32,911 nucleotides of DNA, taken from NCBI GenBank assembly GCA_964548645.1, contig CAZJQU010000002.1, positions 1-32,911 on the forward strand. Reading direction: 5' to 3'. Source of the stretch: an uncultured Muribaculaceae bacterium. Lineage in GTDB: Bacteria > Bacillota_I > Bacilli_A > RF39 > UBA660. Shown piece by piece: positions 6,778 through 32,851 of this stretch. The notes beneath the pieces are model-generated. The model did no database searches, was not told where the DNA came from, and worked only from the letters and a program-made list of their open reading frames with translations. Within the stretch, counting starts at the first letter, position 1. Every line of letters starts with the position of its first letter. Made by a program: the position numbers and the translations under genes.

Positions 6778-6927
6778 AATTCACCTCCTAAATTATAAAA
6801 ACTCTCATTATCCATAACGAGAGTTTAAAATAACATTAGTTATTTAAGCCCTCGGTAGGATTTACTTTTTTACCTACTGTCTATGGGTATATTTGCTTTT
6901 TCAATTGGTATTATATATCAATATATA
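6778..6927 (-). promoter_or_regulatory. Structured rplJ 5' leader (candidate L10 leader autoregulatory RNA)
   Basis: 150-bp non-coding gap upstream of rplJ. Minus-strand hairpins: GTAGG..CCTAC within CCCATAGACAGTAGGTAAAAAAGTAAATCCTACCGAGGG, and AAACTCTCGTTATGGATAATGAGAGTTT followed by a T-rich run just before the SD. Assigned by position and structure only; no covariance model was run. Confidence 0.45.
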
Positions 6928-11151: not shown

Positions 11152-11454
11152 TTACTCTTCTTCGTTTTCTTCTGTTTCTTCTACTTCAGTTACAGGATCT
11201 TCTGCTTTTTCGTATTCTTCAAGTATAACCTTGTTGAACATTTCACGTGTTTCTTGATTTATAGGATGAGCAACATCTCTATAATCTCCTACCGCATTTC
11301 TACGGCTTGGCATTGCAACGAATAGTCCGTTATCTCCTTCTATTACTTTAATATCATGAACTGCAAAGCAATCATCTATTAGAATAGAAACTATTCCTTT
11401 CATACGTGAGTTCTCTTTTTCGATTTTTCGAACATTTACTGATGTTATTTTCAC
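11152..11454 (-). CDS. spoVG: Septation/regulatory protein SpoVG
   Basis: [10 protein letters not shown]...[22 protein letters not shown] is the conserved SpoVG core. Acidic tail. Start preferred at the second GTG (11454), after GGAGAGG. Confidence 0.9.
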
Positions 11455-24040: not shown

Positions 24041-24469
24041 TTATTTTTTTCTTTGAATTTCAAAAAAATCTTTCAATATTTTTTTAGATTTCTCTTCAAA
24101 AATACCGTATTCAATATCTATTTTGCTATTTGCAACTATTACATCTAAGCTATGCTTATATTTATTATTTCTAGTAGAACAATATACCTTTTTTATTCTA
24201 GTTTCTGCGATAAGTCCCATGCACATTATACAAGGCTCTAAGTTTACAAATAGTAAACAGTCGTTAAGCCTCCAGTCCCCTATTTTTTTACAGGCTTTTT
24301 TTATTGCAATTATTTCGGCATGTGCAAAAGGGTTGTTTTTACTTTCTTTTAGATTATGGGCTCTTGCCACTATTTTATCATCACAAACCACGATAGCACC
24401 AATCGGAGTTTCACCTTTTTTAAAAGCTTTATTAGCTTCTTTTAAGGTCTCTAACATATATTTTTCCAT
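24041..24469 (-). CDS. tadA: tRNA-specific adenosine deaminase
   Basis: HAE...PCIMC zinc-binding deaminase motifs. Start re-called at 24469 (GGAGGTGAA-ATG, MEKYMLETL). The ORF-track extension to 24502 would read through a parS palindrome and has no SD. Confidence 0.9.
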   Translation of the reverse strand: MEKYMLETLKEANKAFKKGETPIGAIVVCDDKIVARAHNLKESKNNPFAHAEIIAIKKACKKIGDWRLNDCLLFVNLEPCIMCMGLIAETRIKKVYCSTRNNKYKHSLDVIVANSKIDIEYGIFEEKSKKILKDFFEIQRKK

Positions 24470-24479
24470 TTCACCTCCA

Positions 24480-24497
24480 ATGTTCCACGTGGAACAT
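24480..24497. other. parS site, CC-type (ATGTTCCACGTGGAACAT; core TGTTCCACGTGGAACA)
   Basis: Perfect 18-bp palindrome matching the parS consensus TGTTNCACGTGNAACA. Lies 10 bp upstream of the tadA SD. Confidence 0.75.
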
Positions 24498-24538
24498 AGC
24501 ACAACTTTAATAATTCATATTTTACACTACTTAAACAT

Positions 24539-24617
24539 AAAAAACGACGTACACGAATCAAATTTGATTGGCTGCTACCTTTCGGTCCTGACCGATTATC
24601 AACAGACTCGTTACGTC
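24539..24617 (-). ncRNA. ffs: Signal recognition particle RNA, short (4.5S-like) form
   Basis: Minus strand GACGTAACGAGTCTGTTGATAATCGGTCAGGACCGAAAGGTAGCAGCCAATCAAATTTGATTCGTGTACGTC followed by GTTTTTT. GGTCAGGACCGAAAGGTAGCAGCC matches the universally conserved domain IV sequence (E. coli GGUCAGGUCCGGAAGGAAGCAGCC). The ends pair into a long hairpin. Firmicute synteny places scr next to tadA/dnaX. Confidence 0.8.
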
Positions 24618-24623
24618 TTATTA

Positions 24624-24652
24624 AGTATAGTTTATAACCACAAAAATATCAA
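24624..24652 (-). promoter_or_regulatory. Promoter of the SRP RNA gene
   Basis: Minus strand TTGATA - 17 nt - TATACT. Six nt downstream is the G that begins the SRP RNA hairpin. Confidence 0.55.
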
Positions 24653-24677
24653 TAAATTTAAGACAACACCTCTTACA

Positions 24678-24695
24678 ATGTTTCACGTGAAACAT
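24678..24695. other. parS site, TT-type (ATGTTTCACGTGAAACAT; core TGTTTCACGTGAAACA)
   Basis: Perfect 18-bp palindrome. The core equals the widely used consensus parS. Confidence 0.75.
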
Positions 24696-24765
24696 ACATT
24701 AGATGAAACAAATAAAGTCTGAGCCATAATAAGGAGTTGTTTGTTTCACATCGATTTTCATACAT

Positions 24766-24789
24766 AAATTATTTCCCGGGAAATAATTT
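24766..24789. other. Noc-binding-site-type palindrome (AAATTATTTCCCGGGAAATAATTT; core TATTTCCCGGGAAATA)
   Basis: Perfect 24-bp palindrome. The core equals the consensus NBS (B. subtilis ATTTCCCGGGAAAT). Confidence 0.65.
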
Positions 24790-24797
24790 GATAAGCT

Positions 24798-24815
24798 ATG
24801 TTCCACGTGGAACAT
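24798..24815. other. parS site, CC-type
   Basis: ATGTTCCACGTGGAACAT, 8 bp from the preceding NBS palindrome. Confidence 0.75.
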
Positions 24816-24900
24816 CGAAATGTTGTTGATCAATTAATGGTATTCAATGTATGTCTGAGTTTTTTGCTTATTTATTATATGCAATTAGAATCGCGCACTA

Positions 24901-24918
24901 ATGTTTCACGTGAAACAT
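24901..24918. other. parS site, TT-type
   Basis: ATGTTTCACGTGAAACAT. Confidence 0.75.
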
Positions 24919-24986
24919 TAAAAATTATATGTGACCTTTTTATAATCGACTATTGTCTATAGGTTATTTTATCATATTTAATTAAG

Positions 24987-25010
24987 AAATTATTTCCCGG
25001 GAAATAATTT
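24987..25010. other. Noc-binding-site-type palindrome
   Basis: AAATTATTTCCCGGGAAATAATTT, identical to the copy at 24766. Confidence 0.65.
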
Positions 25011-25018
25011 AATGAGTT

Positions 25019-25036
25019 ATGTTCCACGTGGAACAT
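25019..25036. other. parS site, CC-type
   Basis: ATGTTCCACGTGGAACAT, 8 bp from the preceding NBS palindrome. Confidence 0.75.
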
Positions 25037-25111
25037 TGTTTTTTTGTTTAATTAAAGAGTTGCTTCTATTTTATATTTGAATAAATTGTTTGTTCTTTTT
25101 TTTGCTGGTTC

Positions 25112-25129
25112 ATGTTTCACGTGAAACAT
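25112..25129. other. parS site, TT-type (palindrome extends to 20 bp, 25111-25130)
   Basis: CATGTTTCACGTGAAACATG. Confidence 0.75.
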
Positions 25130-25199
25130 GAAAGGCAAGGAGAATTTATTATTTATGAATAACAATTATTTTATAAGCATATCTGTTCTGTTGATCAAC

Positions 25200-25223
25200 A
25201 AATTATTTCCCGGGAAATAATTT
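25200..25223. other. Noc-binding-site-type palindrome
   Basis: AAATTATTTCCCGGGAAATAATTT, third identical copy. Confidence 0.65.
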
Positions 25224-25232
25224 AAAGAAAAG

Positions 25233-25250
25233 ATGTTCCACGTGGAACAT
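25233..25250. other. parS site, CC-type, abutting the gyrA stop codon
   Basis: ATGTTCCACGTGGAACAT, 9 bp from the NBS. Its last base is the last base of the gyrA TGA (25250-25252 on the minus strand). Confidence 0.75.
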
Positions 25251-27679
25251 CATTCTTTTATATTAAATACTGCAGTTACTTTTTGATTATCTTTTACATT
25301 TATAAGTCTTACTCCTTGAGTAACCCTACTCATGGTTGATATTTGATTTATTGGAATTCTAATTACCATTCCACTATCTGTTATTATAATTAGATCTTCG
25401 TCTTCTTCTACAATTTTGAATGCAACTATTTTTCCTGTTTTATCTGTTGTGTTTAGAGTTTTAACACCTTTGCTTCCTCTTTTTGTTGTTCTATATTCCT
25501 CTATTACAGTCCTTTTTCCATAACCGTTTTCACTTACAACTAAAACTTTGCTGTTGGCATCTACAATATTTGCATCAATACACAGAGCTCCTGAATCTAG
25601 ATTTATTCCTCTAACGCCAGTTGCCGTTCTTCCCATTATTCTAACTTCTTCTTCGTTGAATCTTACCATCTTTCCAGTTGAGGATGCCATGACTACCTCA
25701 GAATGGCCATTTGTCTTTCTAACAGCAATTAACTTATCGTCCTCTTTTAATTTTATAGCTATCTTTCCAGTTTTCCTTATGTTTTGGAATTCTTCCACCT
25801 TACATCTCTTAACAAGGCCTTGTTGGGTTGCAAATAGTAAACATTTGTTTTCTTCATCTTTTGAAACCTTTAGAATTGATGTTATTCTTTCATCTTTTTC
25901 TAATGGTAGCAAGTTTACAATTGGTAAACCTTTTGATTGCCTGCTAAATTCTGGCACTTCATAACCTTTTATTCTATAGATTAACCCTTTATCTGAGAAA
26001 AGCATCAGAAAGTCATGTGTATTTAACATTAATAGGTTTTCGGCGAAGTCTTCTTCATTTGTAGTCATTCCTTTTACACCAGTTCCGCCCCTATTTTGAG
26101 TTTTGTATGTATCAAGCGGTAACCTTTTAATATATCCTTTATTTGTTAATGTTATTATTATTTCTTCTTGAGGTATTAATTCTTCATCATCTATGTGTTC
26201 TATTGAAGACATATCTATTTTTGTTCTTCTTTCGTTAGCGTACTTTTCCTTTATTTCTAACATCTCTGTTTTAATTATTTCTAGTACTTTTTGAGGATCT
26301 GACAAGATTTCTTCTAATTGTCTGATCAAATTTAAGATATTTGCTAGTTCATCTTCTATTTTACCTCTCTCAAGTCCCGTTAATCTTCTTAGTTTCATTT
26401 CTAATATTGCTTCTGATTGAAGATCGCTTAATGAAAATCTGTTTTTGAGTTCTTCTTTTGCTTTTTGATCATCTTTTGATGTTTTTAGAATTTTAATAAT
26501 TTCATCTATATTATCTAAAGCAATTTTTAAACCTTCTAATATATGTTCTCTTGCTTTTGCTTTTTCTAAATCAAATTGAGTTCTTCTAATTATGATTGTT
26601 TTTTGATAATCGACATAATGTCTATATATATCTTTTAAACCTAGAGTTTTTGGTCTACCGTCTACTAGCATAAGTAGATTTATTCCATAAGATATTTGAA
26701 GGGGAGTATGTTTATATAGATTGTTTAATACAACATTTGCATTTGCTTCTTTTTTTATTTCTATATTTAACTTTATACCTTCTAATGATGATTCATCATG
26801 TAAGTCACTAATGCCATCTAATTGTTTGTTTCTTATTAACTCTCCAATTTTCTTCGTTAAATCGTTAGTTTTACTTACTTGATATGGTACCTCTGTTATT
26901 AAAATTCTGCTTTTTTTGCCCTCTTCTTCTATTATTTCAGCTTTTCCTCTTAATACTATAATTCCTTTTCCTGTTTCATATGCTTTTTTTATTCCACTAT
27001 TTCCTAATATATAACCGTATGTAGGAAAGTCTGGTCCTTTTATAAATTGCATAAGTTCAAGCACTGAAATATCAGGATTATCTATATATTGAATACAAGC
27101 ATCTATTACTTCTCCTAAGTTGTGCGGTGGTATATTCGTTGCCATACCTACTGCTATACCCATGTTTCCATTAACTAATATATTTGGAAATCTAGATGGT
27201 AGTATATTTGGTTCTCTTCTTTGTCCATCGTAATTATCAGAAAAATCTACTGTATTTTTATTTATATCTCTTAATAATTCCATAGAAATCTTTGATAATC
27301 TTGCCTCTGTATAACGAGAAGCCGCTGGACTATCTCCATCTCCAGATCCAAAGTTTCCGTGTCCATCTATTAATGTATGTCTATAAGTAAAGTCTTGTGC
27401 CATCCTTGCCATTGAATCATATATCGCAGAATCTCCATGTGGGTGATAATGTCCCATAACTGCACCAACCGCATTTGCACTTTTTTGATGCTTCTTTTCT
27501 GGTGTCATTCCTTCTTCAAACATAGTATATAGTATTCTTCTATGTACGGGTTTTAGTCCATCTCTAACGTCAGGTATTGCTCTAGATACTATTACACTCA
27601 TCGAATAGTCTAAAAAAGAGTTTTTTATTTCAGTTGATAAGTTAATATCTTCAATTTTATCTATTATTTTTTCTTCCAT
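25250..27679 (-). CDS. gyrA: DNA gyrase subunit A
   Basis: 809 aa. QRDR region HPHGDSAIYD, active-site AASRYTEARL, and a C-terminal beta-pinwheel with a GyrA-box-like QNRGGTGVKG. Confidence 0.98.
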   Translation of the reverse strand: MEEKIIDKIEDINLSTEIKNSFLDYSMSVIVSRAIPDVRDGLKPVHRRILYTMFEEGMTPEKKHQKSANAVGAVMGHYHPHGDSAIYDSMARMAQDFTYRHTLIDGHGNFGSGDGDSPAASRYTEARLSKISMELLRDINKNTVDFSDNYDGQRREPNILPSRFPNILVNGNMGIAVGMATNIPPHNLGEVIDACIQYIDNPDISVLELMQFIKGPDFPTYGYILGNSGIKKAYETGKGIIVLRGKAEIIEEEGKKSRILITEVPYQVSKTNDLTKKIGELIRNKQLDGISDLHDESSLEGIKLNIEIKKEANANVVLNNLYKHTPLQISYGINLLMLVDGRPKTLGLKDIYRHYVDYQKTIIIRRTQFDLEKAKAREHILEGLKIALDNIDEIIKILKTSKDDQKAKEELKNRFSLSDLQSEAILEMKLRRLTGLERGKIEDELANILNLIRQLEEILSDPQKVLEIIKTEMLEIKEKYANERRTKIDMSSIEHIDDEELIPQEEIIITLTNKGYIKRLPLDTYKTQNRGGTGVKGMTTNEEDFAENLLMLNTHDFLMLFSDKGLIYRIKGYEVPEFSRQSKGLPIVNLLPLEKDERITSILKVSKDEENKCLLFATQQGLVKRCKVEEFQNIRKTGKIAIKLKEDDKLIAVRKTNGHSEVVMASSTGKMVRFNEEEVRIMGRTATGVRGINLDSGALCIDANIVDANSKVLVVSENGYGKRTVIEEYRTTKRGSKGVKTLNTTDKTGKIVAFKIVEEDEDLIIITDSGMVIRIPINQISTMSRVTQGVRLINVKDNQKVTAVFNIKE

Positions 27680-29739: not shown

Positions 29740-30849
29740 TTATTTTTCGGTTACTTTTTTGTTTTTTACATTAAATATTTTTGAATCCTTTAGTAATTTA
29801 TCGTCTAAACTATTTAAATCTGTTGTAGTTATGAAGGTTTGAATGTCATTTTTTATATATTTTATTATATTGTTTTGTTTTTTTTCATCGAGTTCGCTAA
29901 ATATATCATCTAATAGTAAAACTGGATATTCTCCGGTTATTTCTTTGAATATTTCGATTTCTGCTAGTTTTAAACACACCATGATTATTCTTTGTTGTCC
30001 TTGAGAGGCATGATTTCTAATATCATTTTTATTTAGATAAAATATTAGGTCATCTCTGTGTGGACCGTTTACTGTCATTCCTAAAAATAAATCTCTTTTT
30101 ATATTGGATGTTAATTTTTTAAATAGAATCTCTCTTATTTCATCTTCGTTTTTTAAATTAGTTATATCTATATTTGTTTTGTATTCTATATCCAAATTTC
30201 CTTCTTCGAATATAGTTTTATATATTTTTTTTGTTTTTTGATTGAGTTTTTCTATAAAATCAATTCTTTTTTTGTAAATTTCGGTCCCTTTTTTTGAAAT
30301 TTGTTCATTTATGATAGAAAGATAGGTCAAATCAAGTTCTTCCATTTTCTTGTTTTTTATGTATTCATTTCTATTTTTTACTAATAAGTTATATTCATTT
30401 AATATTGATAAGTATTTATTATCTATTTGTGCGATTTCTATATTTAAGAACTTTCTTCTAGATGAGGGATTTCCTTTTATTAAATCTAAATCGCTGGGAA
30501 AAAACATTATTACGTTGAAGTTTGAAATGTAATGACTTATTTTCTTTATTATAATATCGTTTATTTTTACACTTTTTCCCTTTGTATTTATTAATATTTC
30601 AAATTTTTTTGTTTCTTTTTGTAATTCTAATTCGCCTTTTATCTTAGTTGCTTGTAAACCTTCTTTTATTAAATGTTTATCTATGTTTATTCTATGAGAC
30701 TTAGTTATAGCCAAAACATATATACTTTCTAATATATTTGTTTTTCCTACCGCATTATCTCCATAAAATATATTTATATTGGGAGAAAATTGTAGTTTTA
30801 AATCCTCATAATTTCTAAAGTTTTTTAATTCTAATTTGTTTAGTTTCAT
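29740..30849 (-). CDS. recF: DNA replication and repair protein RecF
   Basis: 369 aa. Walker A GDNAVGKTN, signature SQGQQR, Walker B LLLDDIFSELD. Confidence 0.93.
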   Translation of the reverse strand: MKLNKLELKNFRNYEDLKLQFSPNINIFYGDNAVGKTNILESIYVLAITKSHRINIDKHLIKEGLQATKIKGELELQKETKKFEILINTKGKSVKINDIIIKKISHYISNFNVIMFFPSDLDLIKGNPSSRRKFLNIEIAQIDNKYLSILNEYNLLVKNRNEYIKNKKMEELDLTYLSIINEQISKKGTEIYKKRIDFIEKLNQKTKKIYKTIFEEGNLDIEYKTNIDITNLKNEDEIREILFKKLTSNIKRDLFLGMTVNGPHRDDLIFYLNKNDIRNHASQGQQRIIMVCLKLAEIEIFKEITGEYPVLLLDDIFSELDEKKQNNIIKYIKNDIQTFITTTDLNSLDDKLLKDSKIFNVKNKKVTEK

Positions 30850-30850
30850 C

Positions 30851-32197
30851 TTATTTTCCTAAACAGAAATTACTGAATATTTCGTCAATTAGTTCTTCTT
30901 TGTAGTTTTTTCCAATAACGTCTCCTAATAGTTCCCAAATTTGTTTTAAGTCTATTTCTAATATATCTACTGGTAATTCTTCTTTTAAACCTATCTTTAT
31001 ATCTTCTATATTAACTATTGTTTTCTTTAATGTGCTGATTTGTCTAGTATTAAAGAGATAATTCGGATCTTTTTTATTTATTTCATTTATATTAAATTTA
31101 TCTATAATTTTATCTTTTAAATTTGTTATATCATTATTTAAAGCACTTATTTCTACAATATCTCCGGATAGCATTGTCTTATCTATCTTTTGTTCTAAGT
31201 CCATTTTATTTATTACGATTATTCTGTTTTTATCTTTTGTTCTCTCTAATAGTTCTATATCTTCTTTTTCTAAAATTTCATTATTATTTAAAACTAATAT
31301 TATAAGGTCTGATTCATCTATCAAATTCAAAGATTTATCCACACCAATTTTTTCTATTATATCTTTTGTGTCTCGTATTCCGGCAGTATCCGTTATATTA
31401 AATAGTATAGAGTTTATTGAAATTGTTCCTTCTACTATATCTCTAGTAGTTCCAGCGATATCGGTAACTATTGCTTTATCTTCATCTATTAATTTATTTA
31501 ATAAACTGCTTTTTCCAACGTTTGGTTTTCCTAAAATAACAGTGTTTATTCCGTTTTTTATTATTTTTCCATTTTCGCTTTCTTTTATTATTTTAACTAT
31601 TTCTTCTTCTATAACCTTTATTTCTTTATCTATCATTTCTTTTGTTATTACTAATATGTCTTCGTATTCAGGATAGTCTATATTTGCTTCTATATTAGAT
31701 AATATTTTTGATAGTTTACTTCTTAAGTTTTCAATCATAGTTGAAATATTACCTTTAATTCCGTTAATTGCTAGTTTTCTAGCTGATTCTGTTTTTGAAT
31801 TAATTAATTCCATAATTGATTCTGCTTCGATTAAATCTATTCTTCCATTTAAAAATGCCCTTTTTGTGAATTCTCCTGGTTCAGCAAGTCTTGCTCCATT
31901 TTCTATTAATAATTCTAATATTTTATTTGTAGTTGTTATCCCGCCATGACAATTAATCTCAATAATATCTTCTTTTGTGAAGGTTTTAGGCGCTCTCATC
32001 AAACTTACTAAAACTTCGTCTATTATTGTGTTTTTTTCTTTTATAAAACCATAATTAATAGTATGACTTTCTATATTAGTCAAATCTTTACTAAATATTT
32101 TATTTACTATCTCTATTGCTTCTTTACCGCTTATTCTTATTATAGATATTGCTCCGATTCCCAAAGCTGTAGATATTCCTGCGATTGTGTCGTACAT
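30851..32197 (-). CDS. mnmE: tRNA uridine-5-carboxymethylaminomethyl modification GTPase MnmE
   Basis: N-terminal DTIAGIST, G-domain GKPNVGKSSL / DTAGIR / NKMD, and the C-terminal CxGK tail (FCLGK). Start preferred at 32197 (GGGTGA-TTTT-ATG). Confidence 0.95.
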   Translation of the reverse strand: MYDTIAGISTALGIGAISIIRISGKEAIEIVNKIFSKDLTNIESHTINYGFIKEKNTIIDEVLVSLMRAPKTFTKEDIIEINCHGGITTTNKILELLIENGARLAEPGEFTKRAFLNGRIDLIEAESIMELINSKTESARKLAINGIKGNISTMIENLRSKLSKILSNIEANIDYPEYEDILVITKEMIDKEIKVIEEEIVKIIKESENGKIIKNGINTVILGKPNVGKSSLLNKLIDEDKAIVTDIAGTTRDIVEGTISINSILFNITDTAGIRDTKDIIEKIGVDKSLNLIDESDLIILVLNNNEILEKEDIELLERTKDKNRIIVINKMDLEQKIDKTMLSGDIVEISALNNDITNLKDKIIDKFNINEINKKDPNYLFNTRQISTLKKTIVNIEDIKIGLKEELPVDILEIDLKQIWELLGDVIGKNYKEELIDEIFSNFCLGK

Positions 32198-32213
32198 AAA
32201 ATCACCCAATAAC

Positions 32214-32222
32214 ATTATAACA
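32214..32222 (-). promoter_or_regulatory. Candidate extended -10 promoter for mnmE-recF
   Basis: Minus strand TGTTATAAT in the jag-mnmE gap. It is preceded by the weak hairpin AGAGT-TAAT-ACTCT followed by TTTTTT. Confidence 0.35.
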
Positions 32223-32242
32223 TTAAAAAAAGAGTATTAACT

Positions 32243-32851
32243 CTATTTTTTCTTTATTGTTATACATCTATTTGGTTCTTCACCCACAGATTCTGTAGTA
32301 ATTCCACCAATCTCTGAACATATGCTGTGAACTAATCTTCTTTCGTATGAGTTCATTGGATCAAGTGTTACTTCAACTCCAGATTTTTTTACATCGAATG
32401 CTATTCTTTTTATATTTCTTTCTAAGTTTCTTTTTTGTTTTTCTCTATAATCCTCAACATCTATTATAATATTTACTTTAAATCCTGTATTGTTTTGAAT
32501 AGAACTCCTTACTATTATCTGAATTGAATCTAGTGTTTGTCCGTTTCTACCAATTAAAATTGAGTTTTTATCTGAAAATAAAGTAAATTTTAAATGATCA
32601 TCTCTCTTTTTTGCCTCAATATTTGCATCTATTCCCATTTTTGAGGTTATTTCGAGAACCAGTTCTTTTACATAGTCTATCATGTCATCTTTTAATACTG
32701 CAGTTAGTTTAGTTTTTTTTGATTTAAATAAACCAGATGTTTCTTCTGTATCTTTGAAAAATACGTCTTTTTCTGAAACACTTAATTCATAAAACATTTT
32801 TTCTTTTGCCAAATCTAAGTTTTTTTCTACATATTCATAAGTTTTTATCAT
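32243..32851 (-). CDS. jag: RNA-binding protein Jag/KhpB (Jag_N, KH, R3H domains)
   Basis: 202 aa. KH-like IGRNGQTLDSIQ and R3H ERRLVH motifs. Synteny yidC-jag-mnmE. Confidence 0.85.
   Translation of the reverse strand: MIKTYEYVEKNLDLAKEKMFYELSVSEKDVFFKDTEETSGLFKSKKTKLTAVLKDDMIDYVKELVLEITSKMGIDANIEAKKRDDHLKFTLFSDKNSILIGRNGQTLDSIQIIVRSSIQNNTGFKVNIIIDVEDYREKQKRNLERNIKRIAFDVKKSGVEVTLDPMNSYERRLVHSICSEIGGITTESVGEEPNRCITIKKK

Follow-up and report, generated by a model that had tools for sequence, protein, structure and literature searches.

The window, by which we mean the whole stretch of 32,911 nucleotides analyzed here (32.9 kb), comes from an uncultured low-GC gut bacterium and contains between gyrA and tadA an array of 771 bp with seven parS palindromes, i.e. 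approximately one parS per 110 bp (Table 1). All seven have zero mismatches to TGTTNCACGTGNAACA, compared to 0.08 such sites expected by chance in the 32.9-kb window; none of 100 shuffles reached seven parS, and with up to two mismatches allowed there was no match beyond the seven in the window. No perfect parS was found in L001. An earlier note, made from the sequence alone, had recognized these seven palindromes as exact canonical parS sequences, and this holds for 7/7 sites. Equally, the two 18-bp forms that it described are present and alternate along the array, ATGTTCCACGTGGAACAT in four copies (C/G variant) and ATGTTTCACGTGAAACAT in three (T/A variant), and the only other CACGTG of the window is indeed the one at 11244, inside the SpoVG ORF. 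The parS sites are irregularly spaced (93-198 bp) and the intervening spacers are unrelated. When the three repeat units of the array (approximately 180-240 nt each) are aligned, the 18, 24 and 18 columns that make up the sites are invariant and the spacers are unrelated. Judged from this alignment, selection falls on the sites only, with the palindromes as the sole conserved elements of an otherwise drifting spacer.

Table 1. Sites of the array, the RNA gene inside it and the flanking genes, in the order of the window's forward strand.
Feature	Position	Strand	16-bp core	Remarks
tadA	24041..24469	-		NCBIfam TadA; downstream flank of the array; ATG at 24467-24469, preceded by GGAGGTGAA
parS site 1	24480..24497	none	starts at 24481	ATGTTCCACGTGGAACAT, C/G variant, 0 mismatches; ffs on one side, tadA ribosome-binding site on the other
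ffs (SRP RNA gene)	24531..24627	-		Rfam RF00169, 55.5 bits vs gathering score 40, full-length; inside the array
Promoter-like site for ffs, TTGATA-17-TATACT	24624..24652	-		10/12 consensus matches; consensus match only
parS site 2	24678..24695	none	starts at 24679	ATGTTTCACGTGAAACAT, T/A variant, 0 mismatches
NBS 1	24766-24789	none	24770-24785	Core TATTTCCCGGGAAATA, perfect match to the 16-bp NBS
parS site 3	24798..24815	none	starts at 24799	C/G variant; 13 bp from NBS 1 core
parS site 4	24901..24918	none	starts at 24902	T/A variant
NBS 2	24987-25010	none	24991-25006	Perfect NBS match
parS site 5	25019..25036	none	starts at 25020	C/G variant; 13 bp from NBS 2 core
parS site 6	25112..25129	none	starts at 25113	T/A variant
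NBS 3	25200-25223	none	25204-25219	Perfect NBS match
parS site 7	25233..25250	none	starts at 25234	C/G variant; abuts gyrA stop codon
gyrA	25250..27679	-		NCBIfam GyrA, 1168 bits; upstream flank of the array

The array is embedded in housekeeping genes in the order jag-mnmE-recF-gyrB-gyrA-[array]-ffs-tadA-dnaX. This bears out the neighborhood proposed in the earlier note, except that yidC lies just past the end of the window. The stretch is not wholly non-coding, as had been thought, because parS sites 1 and 2 enclose the SRP RNA gene (ffs; minus strand, 24531-24627), whose candidate promoter is 26 bp from site 2. At the other end of ffs, parS site 1 is directly upstream of the ribosome-binding site and ATG (24467-24469) of tadA; the NCBIfam match to TadA begins at residue 12 of a longer ORF. 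ffs is present in the locus of 13 of 14 relatives and, in the nine of these that were mapped, beside tadA. We found neither mobile-element genes nor an adjacent par operon at the flanks of the array, and no par genes within 15 kb of it. The proposed origin-proximal position was confirmed: a cluster of DnaA boxes occupies the dnaA-rpmH gap, 9-10 kb from the array. The array itself contains no DnaA boxes, and we rejected the idea that it is such a cluster or a second origin. The GC skew stays uniform throughout the window.

Between the parS sites lie three perfect copies of a 24-bp palindrome, AAATTATTTCCCGGGAAATAATTT. Its 16-bp core, TATTTCCCGGGAAATA, is what we take to be the Noc-binding site (NBS) sequence of Wu et al. 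2009 and Jalal et al. 2020. The three perfect NBS compare to 0.18 expected by chance in the window even for up to three mismatches, each NBS core is 13-14 bp from a parS, and CCCGGG occurs three times in the window, each time inside an NBS. According to PMC7383237, each half-site has two positions at which NBS and parS differ. The earlier reading of the sequence had overlooked these three palindromes, which are the most distinctive feature of the array.

All of the sequences are from metagenome assemblies; the clade is placed in Bacilli incertae sedis. In 18 species-level genomes, in which GyrA is 57-64% identical where gyrA is in the locus, the gyrA-tadA-dnaX region has 2-10 perfect parS, mostly between gyrA and tadA. 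Among 61 clade loci that span gyrA and dnaX, with 77 kb in the gyrA..dnaX interval and 455 kb outside, 241 of 242 perfect parS are inside the interval. Because the parS are confined in this way, a REP-like dispersal of the palindromes, which the earlier note had considered, is ruled out.

The density of the parS sites, which the earlier note had taken to be exceptional, is not. We scanned genomes for two perfect parS 76-106 bp apart and, among the first 120 matches listed, 26 loci have at least five perfect parS per kb, and one of the dense loci has 9-10; 16 of the 26 are outside the clade, in eight phyla. A unique density of the array was, therefore, ruled out by the scan. Thus, many phyla of uncultured bacteria commonly have very dense parS arrays, which are not known from the standard model organisms.

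The only ParB-family gene in the approximately 47 kb around oriC (window + L001/L123) codes for a Noc-like protein. The gene is directly downstream of rsmG, making it the syntenic Noc orthologue, and lies approximately 15 kb from the array on the other side of oriC. In structure matches, the protein has 197 and 178 bits with Noc versus 163 bits with Spo0J, and its best NCBIfam model is TIGR04285 nucleoid_noc with 272-298 bits, which is below the cut-off of 315. Its specificity positions read Q-K-S-R, i.e. they are of the NBS type: Q173 and R201 are present in 263/263 family members examined and K179 in 256/263, and position 184 is N, S or G instead of K. As described by Jalal et al. 2020 (PMC7383237), Q173 and R201 with one lysine at 179 or 184 give NBS specificity. 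The same residue mapping returned RxxG in more than 50 ParBs and QK[K/R/A]R in Clostridial Nocs. The CTP-motif box GERRYK is conserved in the family and the C-terminal domain is Noc-type.

In B. subtilis-type Noc, nucleoid occlusion requires a 10-residue N-terminal amphipathic membrane-targeting helix (PMC8429893). This helix is absent from the Noc-like protein: the alignment pairs residue 6 of the protein with residue 27 of B. subtilis Noc, the ORF has room for no more than four additional codons, and 255/263 family members have 14-19 residues before PNRFQPR. Because the helix is absent, the activity of the Noc-like protein cannot be read from B. subtilis Noc. The protein also has an inserted linker of 150-300 residues with the conserved motifs NPQxxLINKL, NRFI and KTYTDSLVQEFRQ. 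From these features, its role is probably not classical membrane-tethered nucleoid occlusion; an accessory centromere function, e.g. connecting or insulating the ParB complex, is more likely.

A canonical ParA-ParB pair was not found in the approximately 47 kb around oriC of the window's genome and, for this reason, the presence of ParA and ParB in this genome rests on its relatives. ParB-family genes are absent from the vicinity of noc in six of seven Noc-gene contexts of relatives, with none within 10 kb in five relatives, and they are absent from all array loci (up to 14 kb each). Similarity searches with the Noc-like protein (word-index and exhaustive representative) returned the Noc-like family only, with the best 150 clusters all above 236 bits. 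ParB was reached only via a divergent member with the ancestral noc-parA-parB order, followed by a walk via ComK. A single 92.8-kb contig (92,795 bp) from a distant clade member carries the genes for the Noc-like protein, ParA and ParB, the latter with R-M-R-G at the specificity positions, together with two copies of ATGTTCCACGTGGAACAT in the gyrA-ffs spacer. Within approximately 9 kb of the parAB genes, no parS was found on this contig, nor in L291 (a clade member) or L293 (same ParB family). More than 120 clusters of that ParB family (66-83% identical) are present in 'Bacilli bacterium' assemblies; the organism names among the cluster members are 'Bacilli bacterium' and 'Candidatus Aphodocola'. 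Another carrier of the family, not itself linked to the clade, has a whiA-parA-parB-mscS-ychF-rpsF block, away from rsmG-noc. The search for parA/parB that the earlier note had suggested was, thus, without result around oriC and successful on the contig of the clade member, where ParA accompanies a canonical ParB (R173/G201). Its view of ParB as the binder at the locus finds support in this canonical ParB and the gyrA-ffs parS in the clade, and is weakened in that the nearest ParB-family gene is of the Noc type.

As the likely reading of these data, we suggest that the 771-bp stretch is an origin-proximal chromosomal centromere at which two paralogous CTP-dependent DNA clamps have a common, composite loading zone. 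In this model, the seven parS would be nucleation sites for canonical ParB, encoded together with ParA elsewhere on the chromosome in the clade, and the Noc-type paralogue, whose gene is next to rsmG, would nucleate at the three NBS. In analogy to their B. subtilis counterparts, both proteins would bind to their own sites, close as CTP-bound clamps and slide onto the flanking DNA. With sites alternating at approximately 30-100 bp, the two types of clamp would be loaded within one and the same kilobase, from which they would spread in both directions, over gyrBA and over ffs-tadA-dnaX. The outcome would be one dense, mixed nucleoprotein complex approximately 10 kb from oriC that marks the origin for segregation and, probably, as a place where SMC is loaded. 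Binding itself, the loading of the clamps, recruitment of SMC and any joint role of the two proteins are inferred; it would be reasonable to expect ParB and SMC to load at the array with high occupancy.

The NBS could also be merely co-located with an ordinary multi-site parS centromere, in a compact genome with few sizeable intergenic regions near the origin, with ParB and the Noc-like protein acting independently, the former in segregation and the latter in its own genome-wide role. We consider this unlikely, although several observations are in its favor. Away from the arrays, NBS occur approximately once per 73 kb of origin-region sequence, resembling the scattered NBS of B. subtilis, and in relatives they are found in other origin-proximal spacers, e.g. 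jag-mnmE and mnmE-mnmG. Moreover, among the 18 relatives, whose selection did not involve NBS, the array contains a perfect NBS in only approximately half, and in L064, L042 and L102 the NBS are hundreds of bp from the parS block. Thus, tight pairing of NBS and parS is not obligatory and joint function is not required. By contrast, in the 61 loci, part of which were selected for NBS, 112 of 129 NBS are inside the gyrA..dnaX interval, i.e. perfect NBS are approximately 40-fold denser inside (112 in 77 kb) than outside (17 in 455 kb). In loci not selected for NBS, the median NBS-to-parS distance is 37 bp versus 69 bp for random placement in the same spacer (P ~0.007, with duplicated units within a locus counted as independent). 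Pairs of parS and NBS have also been amplified as a unit, as in the repeat units of the window and in L202, which has a true 72-bp tandem repeat with one parS and one NBS per unit. Finally, a search with the pattern NBS-N(1-31)-parS gave 120 metagenome matches, of which 118 have a GC content of 0.19-0.35, and nearly all of these 118 low-GC loci have gyrA, tadA or dnaX homologues beside the sites. On the basis of these matches, the parS+NBS composite is a hallmark of the clade, almost exclusive to clade and locus.

It is very improbable that a single bispecific member of the ParB/Noc family, the QK(S/N)R protein encoded next to rsmG, binds both palindromes as the sole family member. The isolation of its gene around oriC and in the five relatives would fit this idea, as would two ParB-like traits, i.e. 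the lack of the membrane helix and of a lysine at position 184. However, in the mutational scans of Jalal et al. (PMC7383237), Q173 and R201 switch specificity to NBS, and dual-specificity variants mostly have T/S at position 201, not R. Also, an RxxG ParB and ParA share a clade contig with the Noc-like gene and gyrA-ffs parS, and 'Bacilli bacterium' assemblies contain the canonical ParB family in abundance.

That the palindromes are mainly RNA or DNA hairpins, e.g. transcription terminators or REP/MITE-like repeats, rather than protein-loading sites is more doubtful still. On the minus strand, parS site 7 forms a hairpin with a U-run behind it and resembles a terminator (terminator scan; RNA fold -15.8 kcal/mol, z = -5.1), making it a good candidate for the gyrA terminator, and the scan also gave a terminator-like structure for site 5 on the plus strand. 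The remaining sites, however, fold no better than shuffled sequence (z -1.4 to -1.7), the palindromes match the two protein-binding consensus sites exactly, only 1/242 parS is outside the spacer, and the hallmarks of mobile elements are absent while the sequences between the sites are unrelated.

That the array is what remains of the partition site of an integrated plasmid or phage, i.e. an iterated centromere such as F sopC, can practically be dismissed: the site density is superficially similar, and parS pairs are also present on 42 viral or plasmid-like contigs, but the flanks are core housekeeping genes whose synteny is conserved in well over 100 loci across the clade, which excludes a recent integration, and neither the flanks nor the spacing of the sites have the expected features. 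F sopC consists of 12 tandem 43-bp repeats. The array shares with such centromeres that many ParB-type binding sites lie in less than 1 kb. It differs in that its units are not tandem copies (true tandem units being those of 72 bp in the relative L202), that it is chromosomal and that it has two site types. The likeness to an iterated plasmid centromere suggested in the earlier note is, therefore, not sustained, given the spacing of 93-198 bp, the unrelated spacers and the lack of an adjacent par operon.

Among chromosomal systems, there are 10 parS for Spo0J of B. subtilis and 20-23 in Streptomyces coelicolor and Listeria innocua, and other species have clusters near parAB. The composite centromere that we suggest is similar to chromosomal ParABS centromeres in its 16-bp consensus, its origin-proximal position, the presence of several sites and the ParA-ParB pair in the clade. 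However, described clusters span kilobases to hundreds of kilobases, while the array has seven perfect sites in 0.77 kb, occupies the gyrA-ffs-tadA spacer instead of lying within or beside parB, and is interleaved with sites for a paralogous protein. In a review (PMC7333895), the number of parS is described as varying widely, and why sites cluster is posed as a question.

With the Noc-NBS system of B. subtilis and S. aureus, the clade has in common the identical 16-bp NBS core and a syntenic orthologue downstream of rsmG that retains Q173, K179, R201, the conserved CTP-motif box and the Noc-type C-terminal domain. It differs in the replacement of K184 by N/S/G, the inserted 150-300-residue linker and the missing membrane helix. 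Also, NBS have been described as scattered around the chromosome (PMC8429893, PMC7383237), whereas in the clade they are grouped with parS at the origin and are part of a longer, 24-bp palindrome. In the known Noc system, NBS are also taken to be missing near the terminus. A related arrangement is the Clostridia-type noc-[parS]-parA-parB order (L071, L073, L089, L217), which likewise encodes Noc of the QKxR and ParB of the RxxG type, has small clusters of parS close by and, in L217, includes one NBS among its parS. There, 2-4 sites lie between noc and parB; in the clade, the sites are across oriC, multiplied and paired with NBS, and parAB has left the rsmG-noc neighborhood in most members examined. 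In the literature searched (subscription journals lay mostly outside it), we found no description of parS-NBS composite arrays or of ParB/Noc in these lineages. As far as could be found, the parS+NBS composite, which is conserved across a large clade, appears not to have been described before.

More tentatively, and with considerable doubt, we speculate that the Noc orthologue in this clade may be a second centromere-binding CTP clamp, which would co-assemble with ParB on the parS/NBS array instead of acting as a membrane-tethered occlusion factor. It could represent a secondary re-purposing or a living intermediate in the evolution of Noc from ParB. The parS+NBS pair would then be the functional unit that was amplified in several lineages, and the linker motifs might tie the partition complex to another cellular structure. 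In the version with an intermediate stage, the new DNA specificity has been gained, the membrane helix has not yet been acquired, and the sites are still at the centromere.

Textbooks use ParB and Noc to illustrate the gain of a new specificity and a new job after duplication of a DNA-binding protein. The two have been described as acting at different places, ParB on parS at the origin and Noc on scattered NBS, while here both types of sites are interleaved in one array. If both proteins load, the array would be an example from nature in which one loading zone serves two paralogous CTP clamps, raising the issues of mutual roadblocking, co-condensation and heterotypic contacts between them. It would also provide a concrete system for the questions of why parS numbers vary and why parS sites cluster (PMC7333895), and would bear on the origin of Noc from ParB.

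Based on the sequences of metagenome assemblies, which are the evidence throughout, we suggest that the array is probably a chromosomal centromere organised as a composite ParB/Noc-type loading zone. In this model, the seven parS sites would load ParB-CTP clamps, and probably also SMC, and three Noc-binding sites (NBS) would load a Noc-type paralogue. Because the two kinds of site alternate at 30-100 bp, ParB and Noc-type clamps would share the same DNA.

As proposed in the earlier note, the parS consensus TGTTNCACGTGNAACA has seven matches without mismatch in the window (0.08 expected by chance), and the only CACGTG outside these sites is in the SpoVG ORF. There are no further matches in the window with up to two mismatches, and neither parS nor NBS with up to three mismatches is present elsewhere in the ~47 kb read around oriC. 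Four copies of ATGTTCCACGTGGAACAT strictly alternate with three copies of ATGTTTCACGTGAAACAT. Each of the three copies of a 24-bp palindrome, AAATTATTTCCCGGGAAATAATTT, has a C-type parS at a core-to-core distance of 13-14 bp. The core of this palindrome, TATTTCCCGGGAAATA, is taken to be the 16-bp NBS; CCCGGG occurs in the window only within these copies. The array contains three repeat units of ~180-240 nt with the layout parS-T, ~70 bp, NBS, 8-9 bp, parS-C, ~85 bp. In their alignment, the 18, 24 and 18 site columns are all invariant while the spacers are unrelated, i.e. only the binding sites are conserved among the units. NBS and parS differ at just two positions per half-site (Jalal et al. 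2020, PMC7383237).

Positions of the array sites and of other features discussed (window coordinates unless a contig or locus is named)
Feature	Position	Strand	Remark
parS core, site 1	24481 (start)		matches TGTTNCACGTGNAACA
parS core, site 2	24679 (start)		matches TGTTNCACGTGNAACA
parS core, site 3	24799 (start)		matches TGTTNCACGTGNAACA
parS core, site 4	24902 (start)		matches TGTTNCACGTGNAACA
parS core, site 5	25020 (start)		matches TGTTNCACGTGNAACA
parS core, site 6	25113 (start)		matches TGTTNCACGTGNAACA
parS core, site 7	25234 (start)		matches TGTTNCACGTGNAACA
AAATTATTTCCCGGGAAATAATTT, copy 1	24766-24789		
AAATTATTTCCCGGGAAATAATTT, copy 2	24987-25010		
AAATTATTTCCCGGGAAATAATTT, copy 3	25200-25223		
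ffs (SRP RNA gene)	24531-24627	minus	between sites 1 and 2
Site 7 + U-run	25232-25251	minus	gyrA strand
CACGTG outside parS	11244		
L10 leader	6786-6904	minus	RF00557, 61.5 bits
Rearranged origin region	29740-32851 + L001		
Noc-like gene	L001 1656-3029	minus	~39.8-41.2 kb on window scale, outside window; adjoins rsmG
dnaN, two ORFs	L001 5658-6738	minus	84 + 260 residues
Tandem composite	L202 1-320		
NBS cluster	L127 5816-5943		
NBS	L291 7274		
NBS	L292 5892		
R-S-K-S protein gene	L105 782-1354		

The density of parS, previously regarded as exceptional, is not. In a scan for pairs of perfect parS at a distance of 76-106 bp, with each GTDB species represented by one genome (at least 120 matches), at least 26 loci have five or more perfect parS within 1 kb (26 among the matches listed). 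Among the same listed matches, seven loci have at least seven, the densest has 9-10, and 16 of the 26 are outside the clade, i.e. the low-GC uncultured Bacilli with parS in the gyrA-tadA-dnaX region. These 16 represent eight phyla (Bacteroidota, Clostridia-type Bacillota, Patescibacteria, Acidobacteriota, Bdellovibrionota, Spirochaetota, Planctomycetota and Pseudomonadota). Thus, dense parS arrays are common among uncultured bacteria. A canonical ParB gene is within a few kb in about half of the matches listed. Loci with 5-7 perfect parS per kb include L038, L046, L079, L094, L093, L092, L120, L041 and others (Bacteroidota, Lachnospiraceae, Paceibacterota, Acidobacteriota, Bdellovibrionota, Treponema, Planctomycetota); some dense arrays outside the clade are regularly spaced at ~46, 55 or 99 bp. 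In L003 and L112, both of them low-GC and Clostridia-like, the whole mnmG-rsmG spacer is occupied by the array, which adjoins parA. In IMG/VR, 42 contigs have two perfect chromosomal-type parS at a distance of 76-106 bp; phage-plasmids or mis-binned host DNA could account for them. The number and clustering of parS are named as open questions in a review (PMC7333895).

In 18 genomes of the density scan (low-GC 'Bacilli', 'Tenericutes' or 'Mycoplasmatota'), an array likewise occupies the gyrA-tadA-dnaX region, in most cases between gyrA and tadA, with a GyrA identity of 57-64% where gyrA is in the locus; about half of the 18 have a perfect NBS inside the array or at its edge. ffs is present in 13 of the 14 clade loci tested and beside tadA in the nine loci mapped. 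A scan of metagenomes for NBS-N(1-31)-parS gave at least 120 matches; among the 120 listed, 118 have a GC content of 0.19-0.35, nearly all of these with homologues of gyrA, tadA or dnaX next to the sites. As judged from these scans, the parS+NBS composite is clade-specific. In 61 loci spanning both gyrA and dnaX, a sample partly selected for NBS, 241 of 242 perfect parS and 112 of 129 perfect NBS are inside the gyrA-dnaX interval, which totals 77 kb vs 455 kb outside. The median in these loci is four parS (range 1-10), with the window's seven in the upper part.

A weaker, rather unlikely alternative is that two independent systems simply share a spacer, large ones being scarce near oriC. Where loci had not been chosen for NBS, the median distance from NBS to the nearest parS is 37 bp vs 69 bp under random placement in the same spacer (P ~0.007; inflated by duplicated units), and more than 2 kb away from the arrays NBS occur about once per 73 kb; in some relatives, NBS form a block apart from parS. 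The most extreme composite observed is on the rumen metagenome contig Ga0247610_10037449 (L202), where true tandem units of 72 bp each contain one parS and one NBS, both perfect (centres 27 bp apart), giving five parS and four NBS in 310 bp. The 24-bp NBS form makes up 40% of the clade sites. NBS are also found in the oriC-adjacent jag-mnmE or mnmE-mnmG spacers of three relatives (in L127 as a cluster of four, of which one is perfect and three have two mismatches); the gyrA-tadA array is, therefore, not the only place near the origin with NBS.

The candidate NBS binder is encoded on L001, a metagenome contig that is 98.6% identical and extends past the window across the origin. This 457-residue Noc-like protein has ParB_N and HTH_ParB domains, and its closest structures are Noc (7NG0, 197 bits) and B. 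subtilis Noc (7OL9, 178 bits), with Spo0J at 163 bits. Among NCBIfam models, nucleoid_noc gives the highest score, 272 bits (generic parB_part, 160 bits), but this is under the cut-off of 315, so the family is annotated only as 'ParB/RepB/Spo0J family'. In ParB, R173/G201 are "absolutely conserved", and Noc has Q173, K179, K184 and R201, with one of the two lysines being enough (Jalal et al. 2020, PMC7383237). At these four positions, the Noc-like protein reads Q-K-S-R; of the 263 family members compared, all have Q173 and R201, 256 have K179 and almost none has K184, and the GERRYK box is kept. Identical mapping gave RxxG in every ParB adjoining parS arrays of other phyla and QK[K/R/A]R in Clostridial Nocs and, therefore, separates the two. 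Beside a parS pair in an uncultured Peptoniphilaceae contig, a ParB-family protein reads R-S-K-S, with serine at 201, where the ParB glycine is reported invariant; S or T at 201 was the mark of dual-specificity variants in a mutational scan (Jalal et al., PMC7383237). The Noc-like family is large: clustering at 50% identity divides it into at least 150 clusters (the best 150 are all members). Unlike B. subtilis Noc, it has neither the 10-residue membrane-targeting helix nor helix alpha2; Noc residue 27 pairs with residue 6 of the Noc-like protein, and upstream extension of the ORF is limited to 4 codons. A low-complexity linker of 150-300 residues with conserved short motifs (ETLDFN, NPQxxLINKL, DINxIKE..ADVNxLLG, NRFI with invariant F, and KTYTDSLVQEFRQ) precedes a Noc-type C-terminal domain.

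The 47 kb read for the window's genome encode neither a canonical ParB nor a ParA, and the same holds for every array locus and, in five relatives, for the DNA up to 10 kb from the Noc-like gene. A divergent clade member with the ancestral order has rsmG, Noc-like, ParA, ParB, mscS, ychF, rpsF, ssb, rpsR and dnaB, and its ParB has the specificity residues R-M-R-G. On the same 92.8-kb contig, dnaA, dnaN, comK, recF, gyrB and gyrA are succeeded by a pair of perfect ATGTTCCACGTGGAACAT sites at a distance of 38 bp, then by an SRP-RNA-like stretch, tadA and dnaX; no other parS is present in the remaining ~30 kb read, which includes parAB and its flanks of ~9 kb each. Within the clade, therefore, gyrA-ffs parS coexist with both a canonical ParB and the Noc-like protein. 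This ParB family comprises more than 120 clusters (66-83% identity) from 'Bacilli bacterium' and 'Candidatus Aphodocola' assemblies; another carrier, unlinked to the clade, has a whiA-parA-parB-mscS-ychF block away from rsmG-noc, with no parS within 10 kb of it. We infer that the window's genome probably has a canonical ParB of this kind. A single bispecific protein binding both parS and NBS is very unlikely, as the specificity residues and the clade ParB oppose it.

The array had been described as non-coding, but ffs lies inside it and has a promoter-like site adjoining parS site 2. Site 1 is immediately upstream of the tadA ribosome-binding site, and site 7 abuts the gyrA stop codon. With its U-run, site 7 gives a strong intrinsic-terminator-like hairpin (-15.8 kcal/mol, z = -5.1) directly after this stop and, therefore, one palindrome may be both ParB site and gyrA terminator. 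That the palindromes are hairpin or terminator elements is still less credible, given that only site 7 resembles one.

The window's genes are all on the minus strand, with uniform GC skew, in the order jag, mnmE, recF, gyrB, gyrA, array with ffs, tadA, dnaX, ybaB, recR, holB, yaaT-like, pth, mfd, metS, tatD, ksgA, spoVG, divIC, mini-RNase III, rlmB, sigma factor, nusG, rplKAJL and rpoB. Past jag follow yidC, rnpA, rpmH, a gap that contains three DnaA boxes (perfect and near-perfect), dnaA, dnaN, mnmG, rsmG and the ParB-family gene. The position of this gap places the array 9-10 kb from oriC; the array itself has no DnaA boxes and is about 15 kb from the ParB-family gene. Conserved housekeeping synteny excludes, for practical purposes, a plasmid or phage remnant.

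Compared with the ancestral Firmicutes origin cluster, which relatives L127, L291 and L292 retain, the region is rearranged: rpmH-rnpA-yidC-jag-mnmE is joined to recF-gyrB-gyrA and dnaA-dnaN to mnmG-rsmG-noc, which looks like an inversion around oriC. The split dnaN on L001 is probably a frameshift or assembly error because the gene is intact in relatives (~372 residues). An ordinary ribosomal protein L10 leader precedes rplJ. Sporulation/competence genes (SpoIID, SpoIIR, Spo0A, YabP, BofA, ComK) occur in the relatives L124, L126, L127 and L292, and spoVG and a gene for a sigH-like sigma factor are in the window. Although names such as 'Tenericutes' or 'Mycoplasma sp.' have been attached to it, the clade, judging from gene content, is probably one of spore-forming Bacilli rather than mollicute-like.

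parS, NBS, ParB, Noc and clusters of parS are already known. In a literature search that covered few subscription journals, we found no description of parS interleaved with NBS in one origin-proximal array, of a fixed gyrA to ffs/tadA array position across a large clade, or of a Noc orthologue family lacking the membrane-targeting helix. Within the suggested composite loading zone, the Noc-type protein is without a membrane helix, so classical nucleoid occlusion by this protein is unlikely; it may assist the partition complex as an accessory factor or act as an insulator (roadblock).
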